DNA from: a virus
Lineage: Duplodnaviria > Caudoviricetes
IMG/VR virus record: IMGVR_UViG_3300020420_000671
Length of the DNA: 64,000 nt
Strand: one strand, 5' to 3'
Shown here: positions 12,106 through 47,723 of the stretch, piece after piece
Numbering within the stretch: position 1 is the first letter of the stretch
Layout: each line of letters starts with the position of its first letter
Program-made: the position numbers and the translations under genes
The notes under the pieces: generated by a model
What the model was told of the DNA's origin: nothing
Database searches by the model: none
What the model saw: only the letters and a program-made list of their open reading frames with translations

Positions 12106-12199
12106 TGGTGGTCCCGGGGAGATTCGAACTCCCATCGCTCTCTAATCTGGAGACTTTGCCGAGTATAAGCCGGGTGTTTTACCATTAAACTACAGGACC
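12106..12199 (-). tRNA. tRNA-Ile(UAU) with atypical long variable arm
   Basis: Acceptor GGTCCTG/CGGGACC, loop CTTATAC, 24-nt variable region, T-stem GGGAG/CTCCC, A73 and CCA; 94 nt. Confidence 0.8.
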
Positions 12200-21320: not shown

Positions 21321-22067
21321 TTGTTTTTTATTTCCGCACCCTTTGGGAACTATCTTAAATTCAAGAACGCAATTAGTGTTACCGGCACTTGGACATTTAA
21401 GCCAAGGCCGGGACTCACTAAACAAATAATCAAAACATTACGGTACGTAAAGACAGACGCAGGTTGGTCTTGGCGAAACAAAATTGGCCTAAGAAACGCA
21501 GGCTTACATGAAGGTTTGCTTAGAACTTCATATGATAATGTTTTAAGCATAGCCGCATTGGAACCATTAGATTGGCACAAAATAAAATTGGCAATAAGTC
21601 CAGATAGGAATATTGAACTAAACATTAGTTGTCCTAACTTAGACACACACCAAGACACAACATCATTCGATGGCTTTGACAAGTTTCCTAATCATATGCG
21701 TGGTAAGTGGTGTATAGTAAAAATACCTCCTACTTCGAGCAACAAACTTGTTGACAAAATAGTAGATGCGGGTTATAATACAATACATGCTAGTAATACA
21801 TTAGCCACTGATAAGGGAGGACTGAGCGGTTACATACTTACTTCTTATACTCTACAATTAATAAGGTATATCAAGAAGACACATCCTCACGTTGAAGTTA
21901 TTGCAGGCGGCGGAGTATCAAAAAAATGGCATGCGGAATACTATTTAGATGAAGGAGCAGATCATATAAGCATAGGCTCGGCTTGTTTTACCCCTTGGAA
22001 AGTTAAGCCAATTTTATCTGCTACAAAGACTGTACAAGATCAGACGGAAATAAATATAATATCATGA
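21321..22067 (+). CDS. pyrD: dihydroorotate dehydrogenase-like flavoprotein (class 1, short)
   Basis: NKIGLRNAG, ELNISCPN (catalytic Cys), SNT and IAGGGV motifs; TTG start. Confidence 0.75.
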   Translation: MFFISAPFGNYLKFKNAISVTGTWTFKPRPGLTKQIIKTLRYVKTDAGWSWRNKIGLRNAGLHEGLLRTSYDNVLSIAALEPLDWHKIKLAISPDRNIELNISCPNLDTHQDTTSFDGFDKFPNHMRGKWCIVKIPPTSSNKLVDKIVDAGYNTIHASNTLATDKGGLSGYILTSYTLQLIRYIKKTHPHVEVIAGGGVSKKWHAEYYLDEGADHISIGSACFTPWKVKPILSATKTVQDQTEINIIS

Positions 22068-23215
22068 GAGCTAACGAAGTTGAAAAGATAAACACCACAG
22101 CATTTAAAGAACTGATGACTCCTGAACTTAAAAAGTTAGGCTCAGTATTCAATAAAGCTGGACATGAAATACGTTTGGTAGGTGGTGTGGTAAGAGACCT
22201 TGCTCTTAAAAAATTTCCCAAAGATGTTGACTTGGCTACTGATGCTAATCCTAAAGATGTAGTAGAACTTTTAGATAAAAACAATATAAAAAATAAGCCA
22301 ACTGGAATAGAACACGGCACCATAACCGCTATCATAAACAAAACTCCATACGAGATTACAACTTTACGAGCTGACAAAGAAACAGACGGCAGACGAGCAA
22401 AAGTACAATTTGTTAAGAATTGGAAACAAGATGCTGAGCGTAGGGATCTAACCTACAATGCTATGAGCCTTGACTTTAAGGGCAAACTATACGATTACTT
22501 TGGAGGAATGGACGACTTACAGGATAAGGTAAGTGCCTTTGTTGGAGATCCAGATGAAAGAATAAAAGAAGATTTCCTTAGGATTCTTAGATATTTCAGA
22601 TTCCAAAGCAAACTGGAAGATCCTAAATGGGATAAAAATACTATAGAAGCCATAACAAACAACGCAAATGATCTTAAAAGAATAAGTGTAGAACGCATAT
22701 GGTCTGAACTTAAAAAGATGCTAGTAAGTAGAAATGTAGAGGAAAGTTTACGTTACATGGGAGAAACAGGAGTAGCAAAAGCAATTCAACTTCCTGTTGA
22801 TAATGCACGATCTATAAAAAAATTAGCAAAGACTGACAATCCTATTGTTCCTTTGGCGGTGCTTGTGAATGATGTGACTCTTGCTGACACTTGGAAAATG
22901 AGTAACGAAGAAACACAATTATTAAGATTTTTAGTACAAAACAAAAAGAATTCATTATCAAAAGATAGTGCTATTGATTTAATACACGACGGCTATCCAA
23001 AGGAAATGGTCCTTCATTTAATTAGTTTACAGGGTAAGAAATCGTTAGATGATGTAATAAGAAATTATGAAGCACCTGATTTTCCTGTACAAGGAAGAGA
23101 TCTAATAGCAAAAGGCATGAAGCCAGGAGTTGATGTTGGAAGACAACTTGCTCAACTAAGAGACAAATGGAAAGCAAGTGGATACAAACTTTCTAAAGAT
23201 CAACTTTTAAGGTAA
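22064..23215 (+). CDS. cca: CCA-adding enzyme / poly(A) polymerase family nucleotidyltransferase
   Basis: VGGVVRD...DVDLAT, DAERRDLTYNAM and EDFLRILRYFRF motifs. Confidence 0.9.
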   Translation: MRANEVEKINTTAFKELMTPELKKLGSVFNKAGHEIRLVGGVVRDLALKKFPKDVDLATDANPKDVVELLDKNNIKNKPTGIEHGTITAIINKTPYEITTLRADKETDGRRAKVQFVKNWKQDAERRDLTYNAMSLDFKGKLYDYFGGMDDLQDKVSAFVGDPDERIKEDFLRILRYFRFQSKLEDPKWDKNTIEAITNNANDLKRISVERIWSELKKMLVSRNVEESLRYMGETGVAKAIQLPVDNARSIKKLAKTDNPIVPLAVLVNDVTLADTWKMSNEETQLLRFLVQNKKNSLSKDSAIDLIHDGYPKEMVLHLISLQGKKSLDDVIRNYEAPDFPVQGRDLIAKGMKPGVDVGRQLAQLRDKWKASGYKLSKDQLLR

Positions 23216-23968: not shown

Positions 23969-24403
23969 ATGAAGAGCTTGATTACATTAGTAGTAACAGT
24001 ATTTGCAGTAGTTTTTGTATCTAGTATGGCGTATTCCGCCGATATGTCGATTGACATGTTGAATAAACTTGGAAAAGAAAAGATGGTTTATTCAGTTGAT
24101 GTTGCTGAGATCGACGCAGGAGATACTATCACTTGGTTGCCAGCATCAAAAGGACACAATGTCCATTTCATAGCTGGTCCAGACGGATGGGATTTACCAA
24201 AGAAAAGTAAGAACAACAAAGAAGTTGCTATTACTTTTGACACACCAGGCATTTACCTGTACCAGTGTACACCACATGCTTCAATGGGCATGATAGCACT
24301 TGTGATAGTAGGTGGAGATACATCAAACCTAGATGCTATTGCGAAGGCAAAGGTAAGAGGTAAAAGTAAAAAGAAACTTAAAAAGTTACTTGGAGAACTT
24401 TAA
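23969..24403 (+). CDS. pseudoazurin (type-1 blue copper protein)
   Basis: Signal peptide; KGHNV and YQCTPHASMGM copper ligands (H, C, H, M). Confidence 0.9.
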   Translation: MKSLITLVVTVFAVVFVSSMAYSADMSIDMLNKLGKEKMVYSVDVAEIDAGDTITWLPASKGHNVHFIAGPDGWDLPKKSKNNKEVAITFDTPGIYLYQCTPHASMGMIALVIVGGDTSNLDAIAKAKVRGKSKKKLKKLLGEL

Positions 24404-24460: not shown

Positions 24461-24486
24461 AGCCAGGGAAACCTGGCTTTTTTTTT
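24461..24486 (+). terminator. intrinsic terminator
   Basis: AGCCAGG-GAAA-CCTGGCT followed by a T run. Confidence 0.85.
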
Positions 24487-24577
24487 GAATAAGATAAATA
24501 CCTCGACAAAAGAATAAGGTCGAATTTTTTTTGACCGAAATTTTTTTTGACTTGACAAAAGCAAAAAGGAAAAAGAA

Positions 24578-25426
24578 ATGACGCAACTAATATCCCCAAG
24601 TAAATTTACAAAAACAGTTGGCCTTTTAAGGTCATTTTTTTTGGACAAAGGATTTGAAGAAGTCCATACACAAAACAGACTATCAATACTTGCCGCATGT
24701 GAAGATCCATTCAATGTAGCAACCTACAATTACGCAGGCCAAGTGTGGCCGTTGCCGCAAACAGGCCAAATGTGGCTAGAACACGAATTACTTTCCAAGC
24801 CCGATTCAAAGGGCTTTTTTTGTGTCTCCACATCCTATAGACAGGAACCAAACGCAATACCAGGAAGGCACGATATAATATTTCCAATGTTTGAATTTGA
24901 AATGCCAGGTGACATCGATGATCTTAAAAAGATGGAATACGAACTATGTCAACACTTAGGTTTTAGGATGCCAACAGAAAAGACTTATTCCGAATGGCAA
25001 GAGGAATACGAAGTAGATGGAGAACTAACAGCTGAACATGAAACAAAGATGTTCAATGACTATGTAACAACAATGATAACCGACTTTCCGGAATTTACAA
25101 GTCCATTTTGGAACATGAGTAGATACGAAGGCGGTGCTACAAGTAAGAAGATAGATGTTATCTTAGGCGGAATGGAAACAATAGGATCAGCAGAACGTTC
25201 ATGTGATGTTAATATGATGCGTGATACATTTCATACTATCACAGGCGGAGAATATAGCGAACTACTATATAAATTGTTTGGTAAAGAAAGAGTAGAAGCA
25301 GAACTTGAAAAGTTTTTAGAGTTTGATTTCTTCCCAAGAGTTGGCGGAGGAATAGGAATGACAAGAATGATAAGTGCTTTGGATACAATACCACAATACG
25401 ATCCAAACGTACCTCCTAGCATCTAA
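24578..25426 (+). CDS. AsnRS/AspRS-like class II catalytic domain without anticodon-binding domain (AsnRS2 / asparagine synthetase-like)
   Basis: LPQTGQMWLE, SYRQEPN..PGRH...FPMFEFE (motif 2), GMETIGSAERS and RVGGGIGMTR (motif 3); only 282 aa. Confidence 0.8.
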   Translation: MTQLISPSKFTKTVGLLRSFFLDKGFEEVHTQNRLSILAACEDPFNVATYNYAGQVWPLPQTGQMWLEHELLSKPDSKGFFCVSTSYRQEPNAIPGRHDIIFPMFEFEMPGDIDDLKKMEYELCQHLGFRMPTEKTYSEWQEEYEVDGELTAEHETKMFNDYVTTMITDFPEFTSPFWNMSRYEGGATSKKIDVILGGMETIGSAERSCDVNMMRDTFHTITGGEYSELLYKLFGKERVEAELEKFLEFDFFPRVGGGIGMTRMISALDTIPQYDPNVPPSI

Positions 25427-25432
25427 TAATAG

Positions 25433-25533
25433 TCTGGGGTGGTGAAATTGGTAGACACGCACGATTGTTTCTCGTGTGATAGGTATTCCGCAAAATATTT
25501 ATCGTGGAGGTTCGAGTCCTCCCCCCAGAGCCA
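25433..25533 (+). tRNA. non-canonical tRNA(GUU), Asn-like, with 10-bp variable arm
   Basis: Acceptor TCTGGGG/CCCCAGA, G73, CCA; CACGA/TCGTG stem with loop TTGTTTC; 29-nt variable region; T-stem GGAGG/CCTCC. Confidence 0.8.
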
Positions 25534-25618: not shown

Positions 25619-26674
25619 ATGCCACCTCGTAATCACAAGAATTGGTTGAAACAACCTAAAGTAGAATCAATACGTAGTACGGCCTATAACAGTCCAGAAA
25701 TATTTGAACAAGAACAAAAACAAATCTTTAGTAAGGTTTGGGTACCAATGTGTCACACCAGTGAGATGTATCACATTGATGACTATCGCACCACACAGAT
25801 AGCAGGTGTAAACGTAATAGCAATAAACAAAAGCAAAGGTATTGAAGCATATATAAACAACAATCCTTATATAACATCACCCTCAGGAACCATAACAGAC
25901 TATCAAGGTACACAGTTACATTGTGAAGTCAAGCACGGAGGTATGGTATGGGTAACACTTGATTCTAATCCAACGCAGAGTGTTGAACAATGGACAGCAG
26001 GTGCGTTTGATTGTATCGCAGATGCTATTGATACAGAAGAACTAGAAGTATTTCATTATCATAAAGCAGTGATAGATACAAACTATAAACTGTGGCACGA
26101 CACAAACAGTGAATTCTATCATGACTTCATGCACTACTTCAATCGTGTAACAGGATTCAACGATGAATACTTTGCTCGTAAGAACATTGCTTTTGATAAC
26201 GGACATGTAAACGTGAGTTCGTTCACAGTGAACTACACAGAGTTTGACAAAGCAGGTGACAGAGGAGAGTTAAGTTTTCCTAACCTACCACCCAACCAAT
26301 GGTACATGGTAGACCTGTTTCCAGGATTCAATTTTAATCTACGTGGAAGTGCCTATCGTTCGGATAGCGTAACGCCCTTAGGTTGTAACAAGGTCCTAAT
26401 TGAGTTTAGAGGATATGGATTGAGGAAAGACACGCCCGAAGAAAGGCAAACAAGAATCAAACACCACAACACAATCTGGGGACCATTCGGTCGTAACCTA
26501 CACGAAGACCTCATAGGTGTAACAGGACAAGGTGTTACCATGCGAGAAGGAACTGAGAACAGACACATACTACATGGTAGACATGAGAACAGAACCATAC
26601 ATGATGAAGTTGGTATGCGTCATTACTACAGCGAATGGGGAAAGTATTTGGATATGGATCCTTACTGTGGATAA
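25619..26674 (+). CDS. Rieske-oxygenase alpha-subunit homolog lacking the [2Fe-2S] motif
   Basis: YNSPEIFEQEQKQIFSKVW start and NYKLWHDTNSEFYHDFMH / EDL iron-site region; no CxH..CxxH. Confidence 0.75.
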   Translation: MPPRNHKNWLKQPKVESIRSTAYNSPEIFEQEQKQIFSKVWVPMCHTSEMYHIDDYRTTQIAGVNVIAINKSKGIEAYINNNPYITSPSGTITDYQGTQLHCEVKHGGMVWVTLDSNPTQSVEQWTAGAFDCIADAIDTEELEVFHYHKAVIDTNYKLWHDTNSEFYHDFMHYFNRVTGFNDEYFARKNIAFDNGHVNVSSFTVNYTEFDKAGDRGELSFPNLPPNQWYMVDLFPGFNFNLRGSAYRSDSVTPLGCNKVLIEFRGYGLRKDTPEERQTRIKHHNTIWGPFGRNLHEDLIGVTGQGVTMREGTENRHILHGRHENRTIHDEVGMRHYYSEWGKYLDMDPYCG

Positions 26675-27871: not shown

Positions 27872-28831
27872 TTGAGAATGAAAATAATCACAGGAAATGC
27901 TAATCCAAAATTAGCAACAGAGATTGCGGAACATTGTTTCGCAACACTTGTCCCTGCCAACATCAGCACCTTTGCTGACGGCGAGTCAAGTGTAGAGTTT
28001 TTGGAAAACATCAGAGGAGAAGATGTTTTTATTGTTCAAAGCACATGCACACCTGTTAATGATAGCTTGATGGAACTAATGATAATGATAGATGCGGCCA
28101 AACGTAGCTCGGCATCTAGGATTACTGCGGTGCTACCTTACTATGGCTATGCTAGACAGGATCGTAAGAGTGCTTCACGTACACCTATCACGGCAAAGTT
28201 AGTTGCCAACCTTATTACAAAATCAGGAGCAGATAGGATCTTAACTATGGATCTTCATGCTGGTCAGATACAAGGGTTCTTTGATATCCCGGTAGACGAT
28301 CTGACAAGCAGGGTGGTCTTTGCCAAGGACATTAAAAAGACAATTGGCATAATAGATGAACCTGATGTAGAACAGGTTGGTACTGTGTTTGTTTCACCAG
28401 ACGCAGGAGGAGTTGTTCGTGCTAGAAAGTTTGCGGACATGTTCAACGGAGACATCTGTGTTGTAGATAAACGTAGACCAGAAGCAGGCAAATCAGAAGT
28501 AATGAATCTAATAGGAGATGTAAAAGGCAAACATGCTATCCTAGTAGATGACATCGTTGACAGTGGTGGCACACTTTGTAATGCCGCACAGGCAATCAAG
28601 GACGCAGGTGCTTTAAGTGTTAGAGCTTACATCACACACGGAGTACTATCTGACGATGCTTGTCAAAAGGTTGAAAAGAGTGTGCTAGAAGAACTTGTTG
28701 TTACTGATAGCATTCCTGATCGGTGTCCTAAGAACTGTAAGAAAACTAGACAGGTTTCTGTTTCACAACTGTTTGGTGAAGCAATACGTAGAGTGACAAA
28801 CGAAGAGTCAGTGAGTAGTTTATTTGTGTAG
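27872..28831 (+). CDS. prs: ribose-phosphate pyrophosphokinase
   Basis: FADGES, PYYGYARQDRK, DLHAGQIQGFF and VDDIVDSGGT motifs. Confidence 0.95.
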   Translation: MRMKIITGNANPKLATEIAEHCFATLVPANISTFADGESSVEFLENIRGEDVFIVQSTCTPVNDSLMELMIMIDAAKRSSASRITAVLPYYGYARQDRKSASRTPITAKLVANLITKSGADRILTMDLHAGQIQGFFDIPVDDLTSRVVFAKDIKKTIGIIDEPDVEQVGTVFVSPDAGGVVRARKFADMFNGDICVVDKRRPEAGKSEVMNLIGDVKGKHAILVDDIVDSGGTLCNAAQAIKDAGALSVRAYITHGVLSDDACQKVEKSVLEELVVTDSIPDRCPKNCKKTRQVSVSQLFGEAIRRVTNEESVSSLFV

Positions 28832-46834: not shown

Positions 46835-47203
46835 ATGGCGGAAGCCATGTTGTTATTCATGTTGGTTATAAAACATGCCCTAGCTGATCTGGTACTACAG
46901 AGCAGACTTACTTCTGGAGACAAAAGCAATCTAAAGAGTTGGAAAGGTTACATACACGCAGGAGACCACGGCCTTCTTACGTTCGTTGTTCTCTTGTTCT
47001 TTACTACCTTTGAAAATTCTGTAATCATAGGCATGTTGGATTACGTGCTTCATTTCCTTATAGACTATATCAAAACTGTATTAGTAAGACGTTTTGGTGT
47101 AGTACAGAATAGCCGAACATTTTGGATTGTACAAGGTGTTGATCAAATAGCACATTATTCTTGTTATTTTCTTTACGTTCTTCTCTTGACAAATCTATTA
47201 TAA
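46835..47203 (+). CDS. DUF3307 family membrane protein
   Basis: KHALADLVLQ...HFLIDYIK...DQIAH. Confidence 0.8.
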   Translation: MAEAMLLFMLVIKHALADLVLQSRLTSGDKSNLKSWKGYIHAGDHGLLTFVVLLFFTTFENSVIIGMLDYVLHFLIDYIKTVLVRRFGVVQNSRTFWIVQGVDQIAHYSCYFLYVLLLTNLL

Positions 47204-47216
47204 GATGCTATAAATA
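47186..47216 (+). promoter_or_regulatory. overlapping sigma70 (TTGACA-17-TATAAA) and late (TATAAATA) promoter for tmRNA
   Basis: Both consensus elements visible. Confidence 0.7.
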
Positions 47217-47220
47217 ATAC

Positions 47221-47283
47221 TACAACGTTGAAGCAATTCAAACGCTGGACAGGACCTGGGGGCAGTACCCAGCAGGTCCACCA
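47221..47283 (+). ncRNA. ssrA: two-piece tmRNA, acceptor piece
   Basis: T-arm CTGGG-GGCAGTA-CCCAG (alphaproteobacterial-type T-loop), 3' acceptor strand CAGGTCC-A-CCA; 5' end approximate. Confidence 0.85.
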
Positions 47284-47296
47284 TAAGGACATTGCT

Positions 47297-47485
47297 ATGG
47301 AAGTCATTTGGCATATTCTACTTACGGTTTGTTTAGGTTCGACCTGCCTAGAGCAAGACGTACAAAGGTTTGAGTCCAAGGTAGAATGTTACAAAGTATT
47401 GAAATACTATGAAACAACACCAGCAGATGGTCGTTGGGACACAGTAGAATATATTTGTAAGCCAGTTGGCTCAGTGTCTTTATGA
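47297..47485 (+). CDS. 62-aa hypothetical protein inside the tmRNA intervening segment
   Basis: AAGGA RBS, MEVIWHILLTVCLGSTC..., four Cys; stop just before the coding piece. Confidence 0.65.
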   Translation: MEVIWHILLTVCLGSTCLEQDVQRFESKVECYKVLKYYETTPADGRWDTVEYICKPVGSVSL

Positions 47486-47486
47486 T

Positions 47487-47706
47487 GGGCCTGAAATAGG
47501 ATCGACTGACGGATTAGTAGAAGAGTGGAGTTGTCCGGATGTAAGCTCGGTTAACGCGAACAAACGTTATAAATGCAAACGATAATGCATCAAACGTATT
47601 TTCTTTCGTAGATTTTTCTAACGCGAGAAAGTACGTGAATGAGGATTTCGCCTTAGCGGCTTAATCGCTCGGGGTTGGCAACTTACCTAGCAACAGAAAA
47701 GTTGCT
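47487..47706 (+). ncRNA. ssrA: two-piece tmRNA, coding piece (tag ANDNASNVFSFVDFSNARKYVNEDFALAA)
   Basis: 5' GGGCCTG pairs with CAGGTCC giving G3:U70; AAATAGGATCGAC D-region; TAAAT-GCA resume codon at 47575, stop at 47664. Confidence 0.9.
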
Positions 47707-47723
47707 TTTTTATGGGAGCTAGT

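Follow-up and report, generated by a model that had tools for sequence, protein, structure and literature searches.

A phage gene for an asparaginyl-tRNA synthetase-like core enzyme, its linked type-II tRNA and a possible place of the enzyme family in pyrimidine synthesis

The subject of this report is a two-gene unit in a 64,000-nucleotide stretch of marine viral DNA (Duplodnaviria; Caudoviricetes; IMG/VR record IMGVR_UViG_3300020420_000671), referred to below as the window. The first gene encodes a protein related to the catalytic domain of asparaginyl-tRNA synthetase (AsnRS), which we call enzyme X, and the second is a tRNA gene of unusual build that follows it directly:

24578-25426, + strand: open reading frame (ORF) of enzyme X, ATG start, TAA stop, 282 amino acids
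25433-25533, + strand: type-II tRNA (long extra arm) with anticodon GUU, 101 nt, starting 6 nt past the stop codon of X

Enzyme X consists of a class IIb catalytic core that has motifs 1-3 and a pocket of the Asn type. PF00152, the Pfam model of the class II D/K/N core, covers residues 12-268 (E 1e-14); the N-terminal OB-fold anticodon-binding domain is missing, with the protein starting at the motif-1 helix and aligning to full-length AsnRS only from about AsnRS residue 130-250 onward. An earlier reading of this DNA from its letters alone (the sequence-only reading) had described a 282-residue class II core lacking the anticodon domain with a tRNA 6 nt downstream, and the ORF, the PF00152 match and the AsnRS alignments all agree with that description. 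X is assigned to PHROG 29758, a group labelled 'unknown function' (E 1e-130). In structural comparisons, the AlphaFold2 model of X (pLDDT 94) matches AsnRS best (Z 26.8-27.7; P. horikoshii 1X54, human 8H53 and T. thermophilus 9SH8; root-mean-square deviation of about 2.1 Å over 246 residues), followed by archaeal aspartyl-tRNA synthetase (AspRS, 26.4), archaeal asparagine synthetase A (AsnA, 23.9) and the EF-P lysyl ligase EpmA/GenX (GenX, 23.8). The same order of AsnRS, archaeal AsnA and GenX is obtained when the profile of X is compared with the PDB (E 6e-15, 2e-7 and 7e-5, respectively): GenX is thus weaker than AsnRS by both scores, and the pocket motifs of X align with those of AsnRS. In the printed alignments, QMWLE of X corresponds to QLYLE of AsnRS (QLYKQ in AspRS), FEFE to VEAE (LDVE in AspRS) and SAER to GGSMR of AsnRS, so that X shows the AsnRS state at both of the positions that separate AsnRS from AspRS. 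Agreement with AsnRS in the residues for ATP and the Asn side chain extends to the Leu and Glu of QMWLE, the Glu of FEFE and the Arg of SAER; X also retains the arginines of motifs 2 and 3, the Mg/ATP acids and the side-chain arginine, and these AsnRS-type catalytic and pocket residues are identical across all clades of the X family. Unlike AsnRS, X lacks the OB-fold domain and the hinge, shares only about 20% identity with it and falls below the asnS cut-off (model TIGR00457 gives no match to X at E up to 1), and it exhibits invariant residues that are specific to its own family: C41-E-D-P, W57, W178-N179, K191, R238 and R254. X is probably not a usual tRNA synthetase, but rather belongs to a family that arose from the catalytic domain of AsnRS and is as yet uncharacterised.

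A stand-alone synthetase core of this kind invites comparison with archaeal asparagine synthetase A (AS-AR, 'AsnRS2'; 3P8T, 1NNH) and bacterial AsnA, which lost tRNA charging and became metabolic adenylate-forming enzymes, and X can be likened to them in this respect. The sequence-only reading had mentioned that AsnRS2-type paralogues act as asparagine synthetases. Were X such an enzyme, it would convert Asp, ATP and ammonia to free Asn and, together with the tRNA, raise the Asn decoding capacity of an AT-rich phage. The size and domain make-up of X are those of archaeal AsnA, there is structural similarity (Z 23-24) and a weak NCBIfam match to the archaeal AsnA model NF005055, and many carriers of X are low-GC viruses. 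This match nevertheless amounts to 16.3 bits against a cut-off of 389, with no match to the model in four virus records related to the window, and X is closer to AsnRS in both profile (E 6e-15 vs 2e-7) and structure (Z 27.7 vs 23.9). X therefore stands as a family separate from AS-AR, found in a pyrimidine rather than an asparagine-supply context and with a tRNA attached in one clade; a free asparagine synthetase would also leave the PyrD and PyrF fusions and the PyrB/PyrC complementarity described below unexplained. We regard this reading as poorly supported and highly improbable.

The window tRNA adopts, as its minimum-free-energy fold, a cloverleaf that comprises a 7-bp acceptor stem, a normal T arm, a D arm with a 3-bp stem and 11-nt loop, an anticodon stem of 5-6 bp with the loop UUGUUUC, which places GUU at positions 34-36 and U at position 37, and an extra arm of 10 bp (GAUAGGUAUU/AAUAUUUAUC). 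It carries U1:A72, G73 and an encoded CCA, the latter being present in all four tRNAs of the window and hence not peculiar to the X-linked one. In its D arm the tRNA is similar to the phage's own tRNA-Leu(UAA), which is also the next-best match in the window to our covariance model R1 (56 bits, compared to 108 bits for the X-linked tRNA). With the Rfam tRNA model, the window copy stays below the gathering score and relatives reach 41-52 bits. ARAGORN labels the window tRNA Glu-CTC and those of relatives Asp-ATC, Ile-AAT or '???'; these labels were rejected, given that the first depends on an alternative anticodon stem that is weak and that the covarying stem leads to GUU everywhere. When 52 distinct homologous sequences were placed on a common cloverleaf, 97.6% of cells were paired, with the acceptor, D, anticodon and T helices each reaching 100%; compensatory changes were found in 18 of the 30 pairs, and the observed covariation was reached by none of 500 shuffles. 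The cloverleaf is not a chance fold.

A position survey of 113 distinct tRNA sequences from 197 loci revealed which features are held constant. GUU and G73 are invariant (113/113) and U1:A72 is present in 112, unlike pairs 2:71 to 4:69 and all anticodon-stem pairs, which covary. Position 37 is U in 94 sequences, A in 14 and C in 5, that is a pyrimidine in 99 of the 113; position 33 is C or G in six, and the length of the extra arm varies between 5 and 11 bp across all copies. Decoding tRNAs carry a purine at 37 and U33 almost universally. Compared to a canonical elongator tRNA-Asn, the X-linked tRNA therefore displays the cloverleaf, GUU, U1:A72 and G73, and departs from it in the short type I variable loop, the purine at 37 and the constant U33. 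The sequence-only reading had listed the same traits (GUU, G73, U1:A72, U37, a Leu-like D arm and a 10-bp extra arm), and both fold and survey bear it out; its identification of U1:A72 as the recognition element of bacterial GatCAB is likewise correct, this pair being a determinant for the enzyme, with one additional D-loop nucleotide in tRNA-Asp acting as an antideterminant (PMC1635274). Contigs from RNA libraries span the 3' end of X and the tRNA without mismatch; since such contigs show neither ends nor strand and DNA carry-over is possible, they are no proof of expression or processing. The window encodes another tRNA of unexpected body type, a tRNA-Ile(UAU) of 94 nt (12106-12199, - strand) with an extra arm of about 21 nt in place of the short variable loop usual for tRNA-Ile. 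Three related contigs (L011, L017, L050) carry this 94-nt gene too, and it is the second such tRNA in this phage lineage.

The linkage of enzyme and tRNA was then assessed from both sides. Starting from X, the tRNA was found behind the gene in about 80 of 85 related loci. Across the 80 IMG/VR loci with an X of 82-92% identity it lies 4-10 nt past the stop codon in almost all and 64-172 nt past it in a few. In three loci (L020, L024, L070) a terminator hairpin replaces the tRNA behind X, these contigs being incomplete, so that loss and relocation are indistinguishable. Starting from the tRNA alone, a pattern search of IMG/VR recovered 118 loci, 111 of which have X directly upstream, the other seven being too short to judge; among the 111 testable loci no tRNA without X was found. 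The same arrangement exists in cultured phages: the Prochlorococcus myophages P-SSM2, P-SSM5 and P-SSM7 encode an X homologue of 65-67% identity, annotated 'tRNA ligase', with a type-II 'tRNA-Asn' of 85-88 nt located 7-9 nt behind it in three different genome contexts, and in the complete 252-kb genomes of P-SSM2 and P-SSM5 this is the sole tRNA gene. In the P-SSM2 record (AY939844.2) the tRNA-Asn feature PSSM2_199 is annotated at 164094-164179, within another coding sequence; its true position is 162083-162168, directly behind the 'tRNA ligase', and the record probably has stale coordinates. X and its tRNA form a conserved unit that moves jointly between genome contexts, as observed directly for the three cultured phages and for hundreds of marine contigs. 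The linkage across phage genomes, which the sequence-only reading had named as a check, is conserved; its remark on indirect Asn-tRNA formation in alphaproteobacteria found no support, the cultured carriers of the pair infecting Prochlorococcus. As for size, CheckV rates five relatives of the window (G001, G006, G212-G214; contigs of 69-187 kb) as 19-51% complete, figures that imply genome lengths near 350 kb, a jumbo size among T4-like marine phages. Sullivan et al. 2010 list the X gene merely as 'tRNA ligase' (T4-GC 194), and our literature search found nothing on the X family, the X-tRNA pair or an alternative route to dihydroorotate.

The X family extends beyond the tRNA-linked genes, and most of its members have no such tRNA. 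An exhaustive profile search produced about 670 clusters at 50% identity; the abundance of the ocean phages among the carriers is reflected in at least 8000 metagenome clusters (90% identity). The 40-60% identical homologues come from huge phages, from contigs of giant-virus metagenome-assembled genomes (MAGs) and from 76 cellular-MAG contigs, some of them megabase-sized, that belong to Chlamydiota, Dependentiae, Patescibacteria, DPANN archaea, Weeksellaceae, Chitinophagales, Aureispira and Alphaproteobacteria. Covariance-model and locus checks showed the type-II tRNA to be absent from these huge-phage, giant-virus and cellular homologues: the huge phages LR756501 and LR756508, which carry X, gave just ordinary Leu tRNAs and one normal tRNA-Asn with the covariance model. 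A scan of the genome collection with P0234, a distant bacterial member, found nothing. In the maximum-likelihood tree the tRNA-linked X proteins fall into a single clade (SH-aLRT 98) whose sister is a PyrD-X fusion, and the three tRNA-less loci mentioned above are nested within this clade. The dependence is one-sided: the tRNA needs X, X does not need the tRNA. Members of the tRNA-linked clade are more acidic than the remainder (isoelectric point 4.7 and net charge of about -20, versus 5.3 and -13) and have lost Lys/Arg at positions 16, 45, 100, 110, 168, 181 and 241, a change not expected of an enzyme that newly holds a tRNA by a new surface.

Relatives of X place the enzyme in pyrimidine synthesis. 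Two independent fusions, PyrD-X (P0125, 661 amino acids, on 7 contigs; also in L268) and X-PyrF (P0137, 588 amino acids), connect it to the pathway, the relatives with pyrimidine fusions or neighbours standing at 50-57% identity; the C-terminal extensions of five X-family members gave no Pfam match. On a giant-virus MAG contig of 116 kb (L098/L103), X is followed by an adjoining PyrE-PyrF-PyrD triple fusion of 758 amino acids; adenylosuccinate synthetase and lyase genes lie a few kb upstream, and the region constitutes a viral nucleotide-synthesis island. Two Chlamydiota (L304, L299) have a cluster of overlapping genes in the order X, dihydroorotate dehydrogenase (DHODH)-family gene, PyrE and PyrF, the DHODH-family gene scoring 59 bits and thus under the equivalog cut-offs. 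On a Chitinophagales chromosome of 3.2 Mb, a bona fide quinone DHODH (431 bits) is located immediately upstream of X, and PyrD adjoins X in four of the five X-bearing Chitinophagales genomes tested. Across the 76 cellular-MAG loci, crude queries detected a pyrimidine gene within 4 kb of X in 11.

The distribution of the preceding pathway genes is complementary to that of X. Within a sample of 201 Chitinophagales genomes, seven of them with X, PyrB (threshold E <= 1e-40) was present in none of the seven X-bearing and in 176 of the 194 X-less genomes (Fisher p 2e-7, with no correction for phylogeny and no control of genome completeness). PyrC above its cut-off was found in 0/6 X-bearing versus 5/5 X-less genomes: the former keep just a PyrC paralogue of 205-244 bits, and the latter have this paralogue as well as true PyrC. 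PyrD and PyrF are retained in all five X-bearing Chitinophagales tested. The comparison is one for cellular genomes, the remainder of the pathway being provided to a phage by its host. The two Chlamydiota genomes gave no match to PyrC models and no PyrB above cut-off, one of them having a sub-cut-off match of 100 bits. A separate full-length AsnRS (asnS 457-632 bits) exists in four of five X-bearing genomes, which indicates that X is not their AsnRS. These fusions, operons and complementary gene distributions are direct observations, and their simplest reading is that X supplies dihydroorotate, the substrate of PyrD. We consider it likely, with good confidence, that X works in the early pyrimidine pathway.

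We propose that X would act just before DHODH in de novo pyrimidine synthesis, replacing both aspartate carbamoyltransferase (PyrB) and dihydroorotase (PyrC). Given that X is nearest to AsnRS by profile, structure and pocket, the first half-reaction of AsnRS would be unchanged, with L-Asn and ATP forming Asn-AMP. In the second step, CO2 or bicarbonate may be captured on the alpha-amino group, formally as an N-carboxyanhydride, and the side-chain amide nitrogen would then attack this carbonyl, closing the six-membered ring of L-dihydroorotate and leaving the alpha-carboxylate free. The family-specific C41-E-D-P, W57, W178-N179, K191, R238 and R254 are candidates for the second step. That Asn is the substrate is a suggestion from the pocket residues to which we give slightly less than an even chance; ATP-driven cyclisation of N-carbamoyl-aspartate is an alternative that accounts less well for the loss of PyrB. 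In the phage, X would be a nucleotide-supply gene that bypasses the regulated early steps of the host.

Having arrived at this proposal for X, we need to ask what the tRNA could contribute in the one clade that has it. Five facts have to be explained: the one-sided dependence, the presence of the tRNA as sole tRNA gene of two large phages, its invariant marks, the relaxed positions 33 and 37 and the lack of a new RNA-binding surface on X. The sequence-only reading had favoured a co-evolved private pair in which X may recognise the long arm instead of the anticodon. In this case X would be a minimal AsnRS that charges the tRNA with Asn, perhaps beside a metabolic role, and the pair would decode independently of host AsnRS and GatCAB. 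The AsnRS-type pocket and the adenylate-forming residues are all intact, the closest structures are true AsnRS in Asn-AMP-bound forms, an enzyme reduced to its core could read the acceptor end through the invariant marks U1:A72, G73 and CCA, and the tRNA depends on X but not the reverse. Clade-specific substitutions also occur in the motif-2 segment (89, 93, 100, 101) and at positions 45-47, elements that touch the acceptor end in class IIb complexes. Against this stands that the tRNA-linked X is one derived clade in a family found in pyrimidine operons and mostly functioning with no such tRNA, with 50-60% identical relatives fused or adjacent to PyrD/E/F in genomes without PyrB/PyrC; that the X-bearing cells already own a canonical AsnRS; that all clades share one active site and positive charge was lost, not gained, in the tRNA-linked one; and that the anticodon loop is poor for decoding, whilst a core-only enzyme needs no invariant GUU unless decoding is intact. 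Thus the conserved unit and the one-sided dependence stand, but a dedicated charging pair does not: we judge it decidedly unlikely, and less likely than either of the two readings discussed next.

The explanation that we favour treats the tRNA as an asparagine carrier. X would have gained, in one clade of T4-like cyanophages, a downstream tRNA remoulded from a phage tRNA-Leu, which retains the marks of tRNA-Asn that the host reads, namely GUU and G73 (for AsnRS or a non-discriminating AspRS, ND-AspRS) and U1:A72 (for GatCAB), whilst the constraint on anticodon-loop positions that are important for decoding (33, 37) is relaxed. Host enzymes would load Asn onto the tRNA or build it there. X would then draw the activated Asn off the CCA end; this is aminoacylation in reverse, of which an AsnRS active site is capable. 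The explanation as a whole, with X producing dihydroorotate and the tRNA as Asn carrier, is put forward tentatively and falls somewhat short of an even chance; that the tRNA feeds X is, taken by itself, possible but doubtful. Its most specific form, a dedicated off-ribosome scaffold on which host ND-AspRS and GatCAB build the Asn that X converts to dihydroorotate without carbamoyl phosphate, PyrB or PyrC, appears rather unlikely. The product, substrate and chemistry of X and the role of the tRNA are all proposals.

About equally likely as the asparagine carrier, and so again doubtful, is that X is a pyrimidine enzyme and the tRNA a plain decoder of AAU/AAC codons, remoulded from tRNA-Leu, charged by host enzymes and riding on the X transcript; it would stay behind X because it uses the promoter of X and is spaced too closely for separation. 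The other tRNAs of the phage (Arg-UCU, Leu-UAA, Ile-UAU) serve AT-rich codons, the same set being found in P-SSM7; the T and D arms of the X-linked tRNA are canonical, its CCA is encoded as in all window tRNAs, RNA-library contigs run across from the 3' end of X into the tRNA, tRNA-Ile(UAU) likewise has a long extra arm, and X did not gain a basic surface. What a plain decoder does not account for is the pyrimidine at position 37 in 99 of 113 sequences and the occasional C or G at position 33, its being the sole tRNA of two 252-kb phages, the intact transfer of the X-tRNA unit between unrelated genome contexts, and the fact that it is never found away from X, whereas other tRNAs of these phages move about.

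Several observations weigh against the explanation of X as a dihydroorotate-forming enzyme fed by an asparagine carrier. On the side of the carrier, the tRNA-linked clade is acidic, with basic residues lost at the seven positions given above; the large Leu-type D loop might hinder GatCAB, to judge from the antideterminant in tRNA-Asp; and tRNA-Ile(UAU) is long-armed too, so the odd tRNA body is perhaps a habit of the lineage and not an adaptation to X. On the side of the pathway, PyrF was found in just two of five X-bearing Chlamydiia genomes, and 18 Chitinophagales genomes have neither X nor PyrB, a count made without control of completeness. For most viral and many cellular copies of X there is no pyrimidine gene at a distance of up to 4-8 kb, no PyrE or PyrF was detected in the window with the queries used, and the DHODH-like ORF of the window, described below, is short and divergent. 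Finally, the product and substrate of X are deduced from context and pocket residues. The three Chlamydiia genomes in which X is present and orotidine monophosphate decarboxylase was not detected (G250, G256, G289) could be incomplete assemblies or could use X outside PyrD-E-F.

The surroundings of the unit in the window comprise the following features:

21321-22067, + strand: divergent DHODH-family ORF, 248 amino acids, 2.5 kb upstream of X (PF01180, E 2e-10)
22064-23215, + strand: CCA-adding tRNA nucleotidyltransferase (PF01743, PF12627; NF009814, 221 bits)
23969-24403, + strand: plastocyanin-family gene, just upstream of X
24461-24489, + strand: GC hairpin GCCAGG...CCTGGC followed by a T run, read from the sequence, just past the plastocyanin gene
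25619-26674, + strand: homologue of a ring-hydroxylating oxygenase alpha subunit, just downstream of the tRNA
27872-28831, + strand: phosphoribosyl pyrophosphate (PRPP) synthetase (PF13793, PF14572, PF00156)
47182-47708, + strand: permuted (two-piece type) transfer-messenger RNA (tmRNA)

All NCBIfam matches of the DHODH-like ORF are DHODH models, at about 50 bits and under their cut-offs. In the related contig L237 a DHODH-like gene 55% identical to that of the window, X and the tRNA lie in a row, such that pyrimidine adjacency within the tRNA-linked clade is partial: direct in L237 and at a distance of 2.5 kb in the window. Between the DHODH-like ORF and X sits the gene for the CCA-adding enzyme, which maintains tRNA 3' ends; its start and the stop of the DHODH-like ORF share 4 nt, and a tRNA-repair gene thus appears to be translationally coupled to a pyrimidine-family gene. 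The terminator-like hairpin at 24461-24489 may mark the upstream boundary of the X-tRNA unit. PRPP synthetase supplies the co-substrate of PyrE and is part of the nucleotide-supply neighbourhood of the window, a setting that fits a nucleotide-supply role of X. On the host side, an asnB-pyrB2-pydC cluster is found in one fifth of HLII Prochlorococcus genomes (PMC10119275). The plastocyanin and oxygenase genes are both typical of cyanophage accessory regions. The permuted tmRNA, identified by the Rfam models alpha_tmRNA and tmRNA_permuted (about 91 bits each), contains an insertion of about 190 nt, has the ARAGORN-predicted tag ANDNASNVFSFVDFSNARKYVNEDFALAA and is unusual phage cargo.

Comparison with known systems helps to define what would be new here. 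Compared with AsnRS, X differs in its genomic association with PyrD/E/F and in its occurrence in cells with an AsnRS of their own. With PyrB and PyrC, X would share the place in the pathway, being found where both are missing and adjoining the consumer of their product; it is nonetheless a class II adenylate-forming fold instead of a transcarbamoylase or zinc amidohydrolase, and presumably ATP-driven and independent of carbamoyl phosphate. For the tRNA, precedents exist in pathways that use a tRNA as metabolite handle, such as Asn synthesis by ND-AspRS/GatCAB and the use of Glu-tRNA in tetrapyrrole synthesis: the phage tRNA retains the ND-AspRS/AsnRS and GatCAB identity marks of the former, although its metabolic link is in our case inferred. 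Phage tRNAs that escape anticodon nucleases also combine unusual loop positions (32, 33, 37, 38) with an unchanged anticodon; these are free-standing decoders in clusters, whereas the X-linked tRNA is tied to one enzyme gene and has changed its body type. To our knowledge, there is no known case of a tRNA tied to pyrimidine synthesis, nor of a dedicated tRNA gene behind a phage metabolic enzyme.

If X makes dihydroorotate, a pathway regarded as universal would have a second and unrelated point of entry, shared by free-living Bacteroidota, Chlamydiota, ultrasmall bacteria, giant viruses and some of the ocean's most abundant phages; genome-based prediction of pyrimidine auxotrophy would change, and X would represent a new kind of viral metabolic gene. 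Should the tRNA, the sole one of two large phages, be permanently tied to such an enzyme, nucleotide metabolism would have recruited a tRNA for the first time; otherwise, the X-linked tRNA would represent a natural case of decoding with a pyrimidine at position 37. Both of these outcomes are directly testable in the cultured Prochlorococcus phages.

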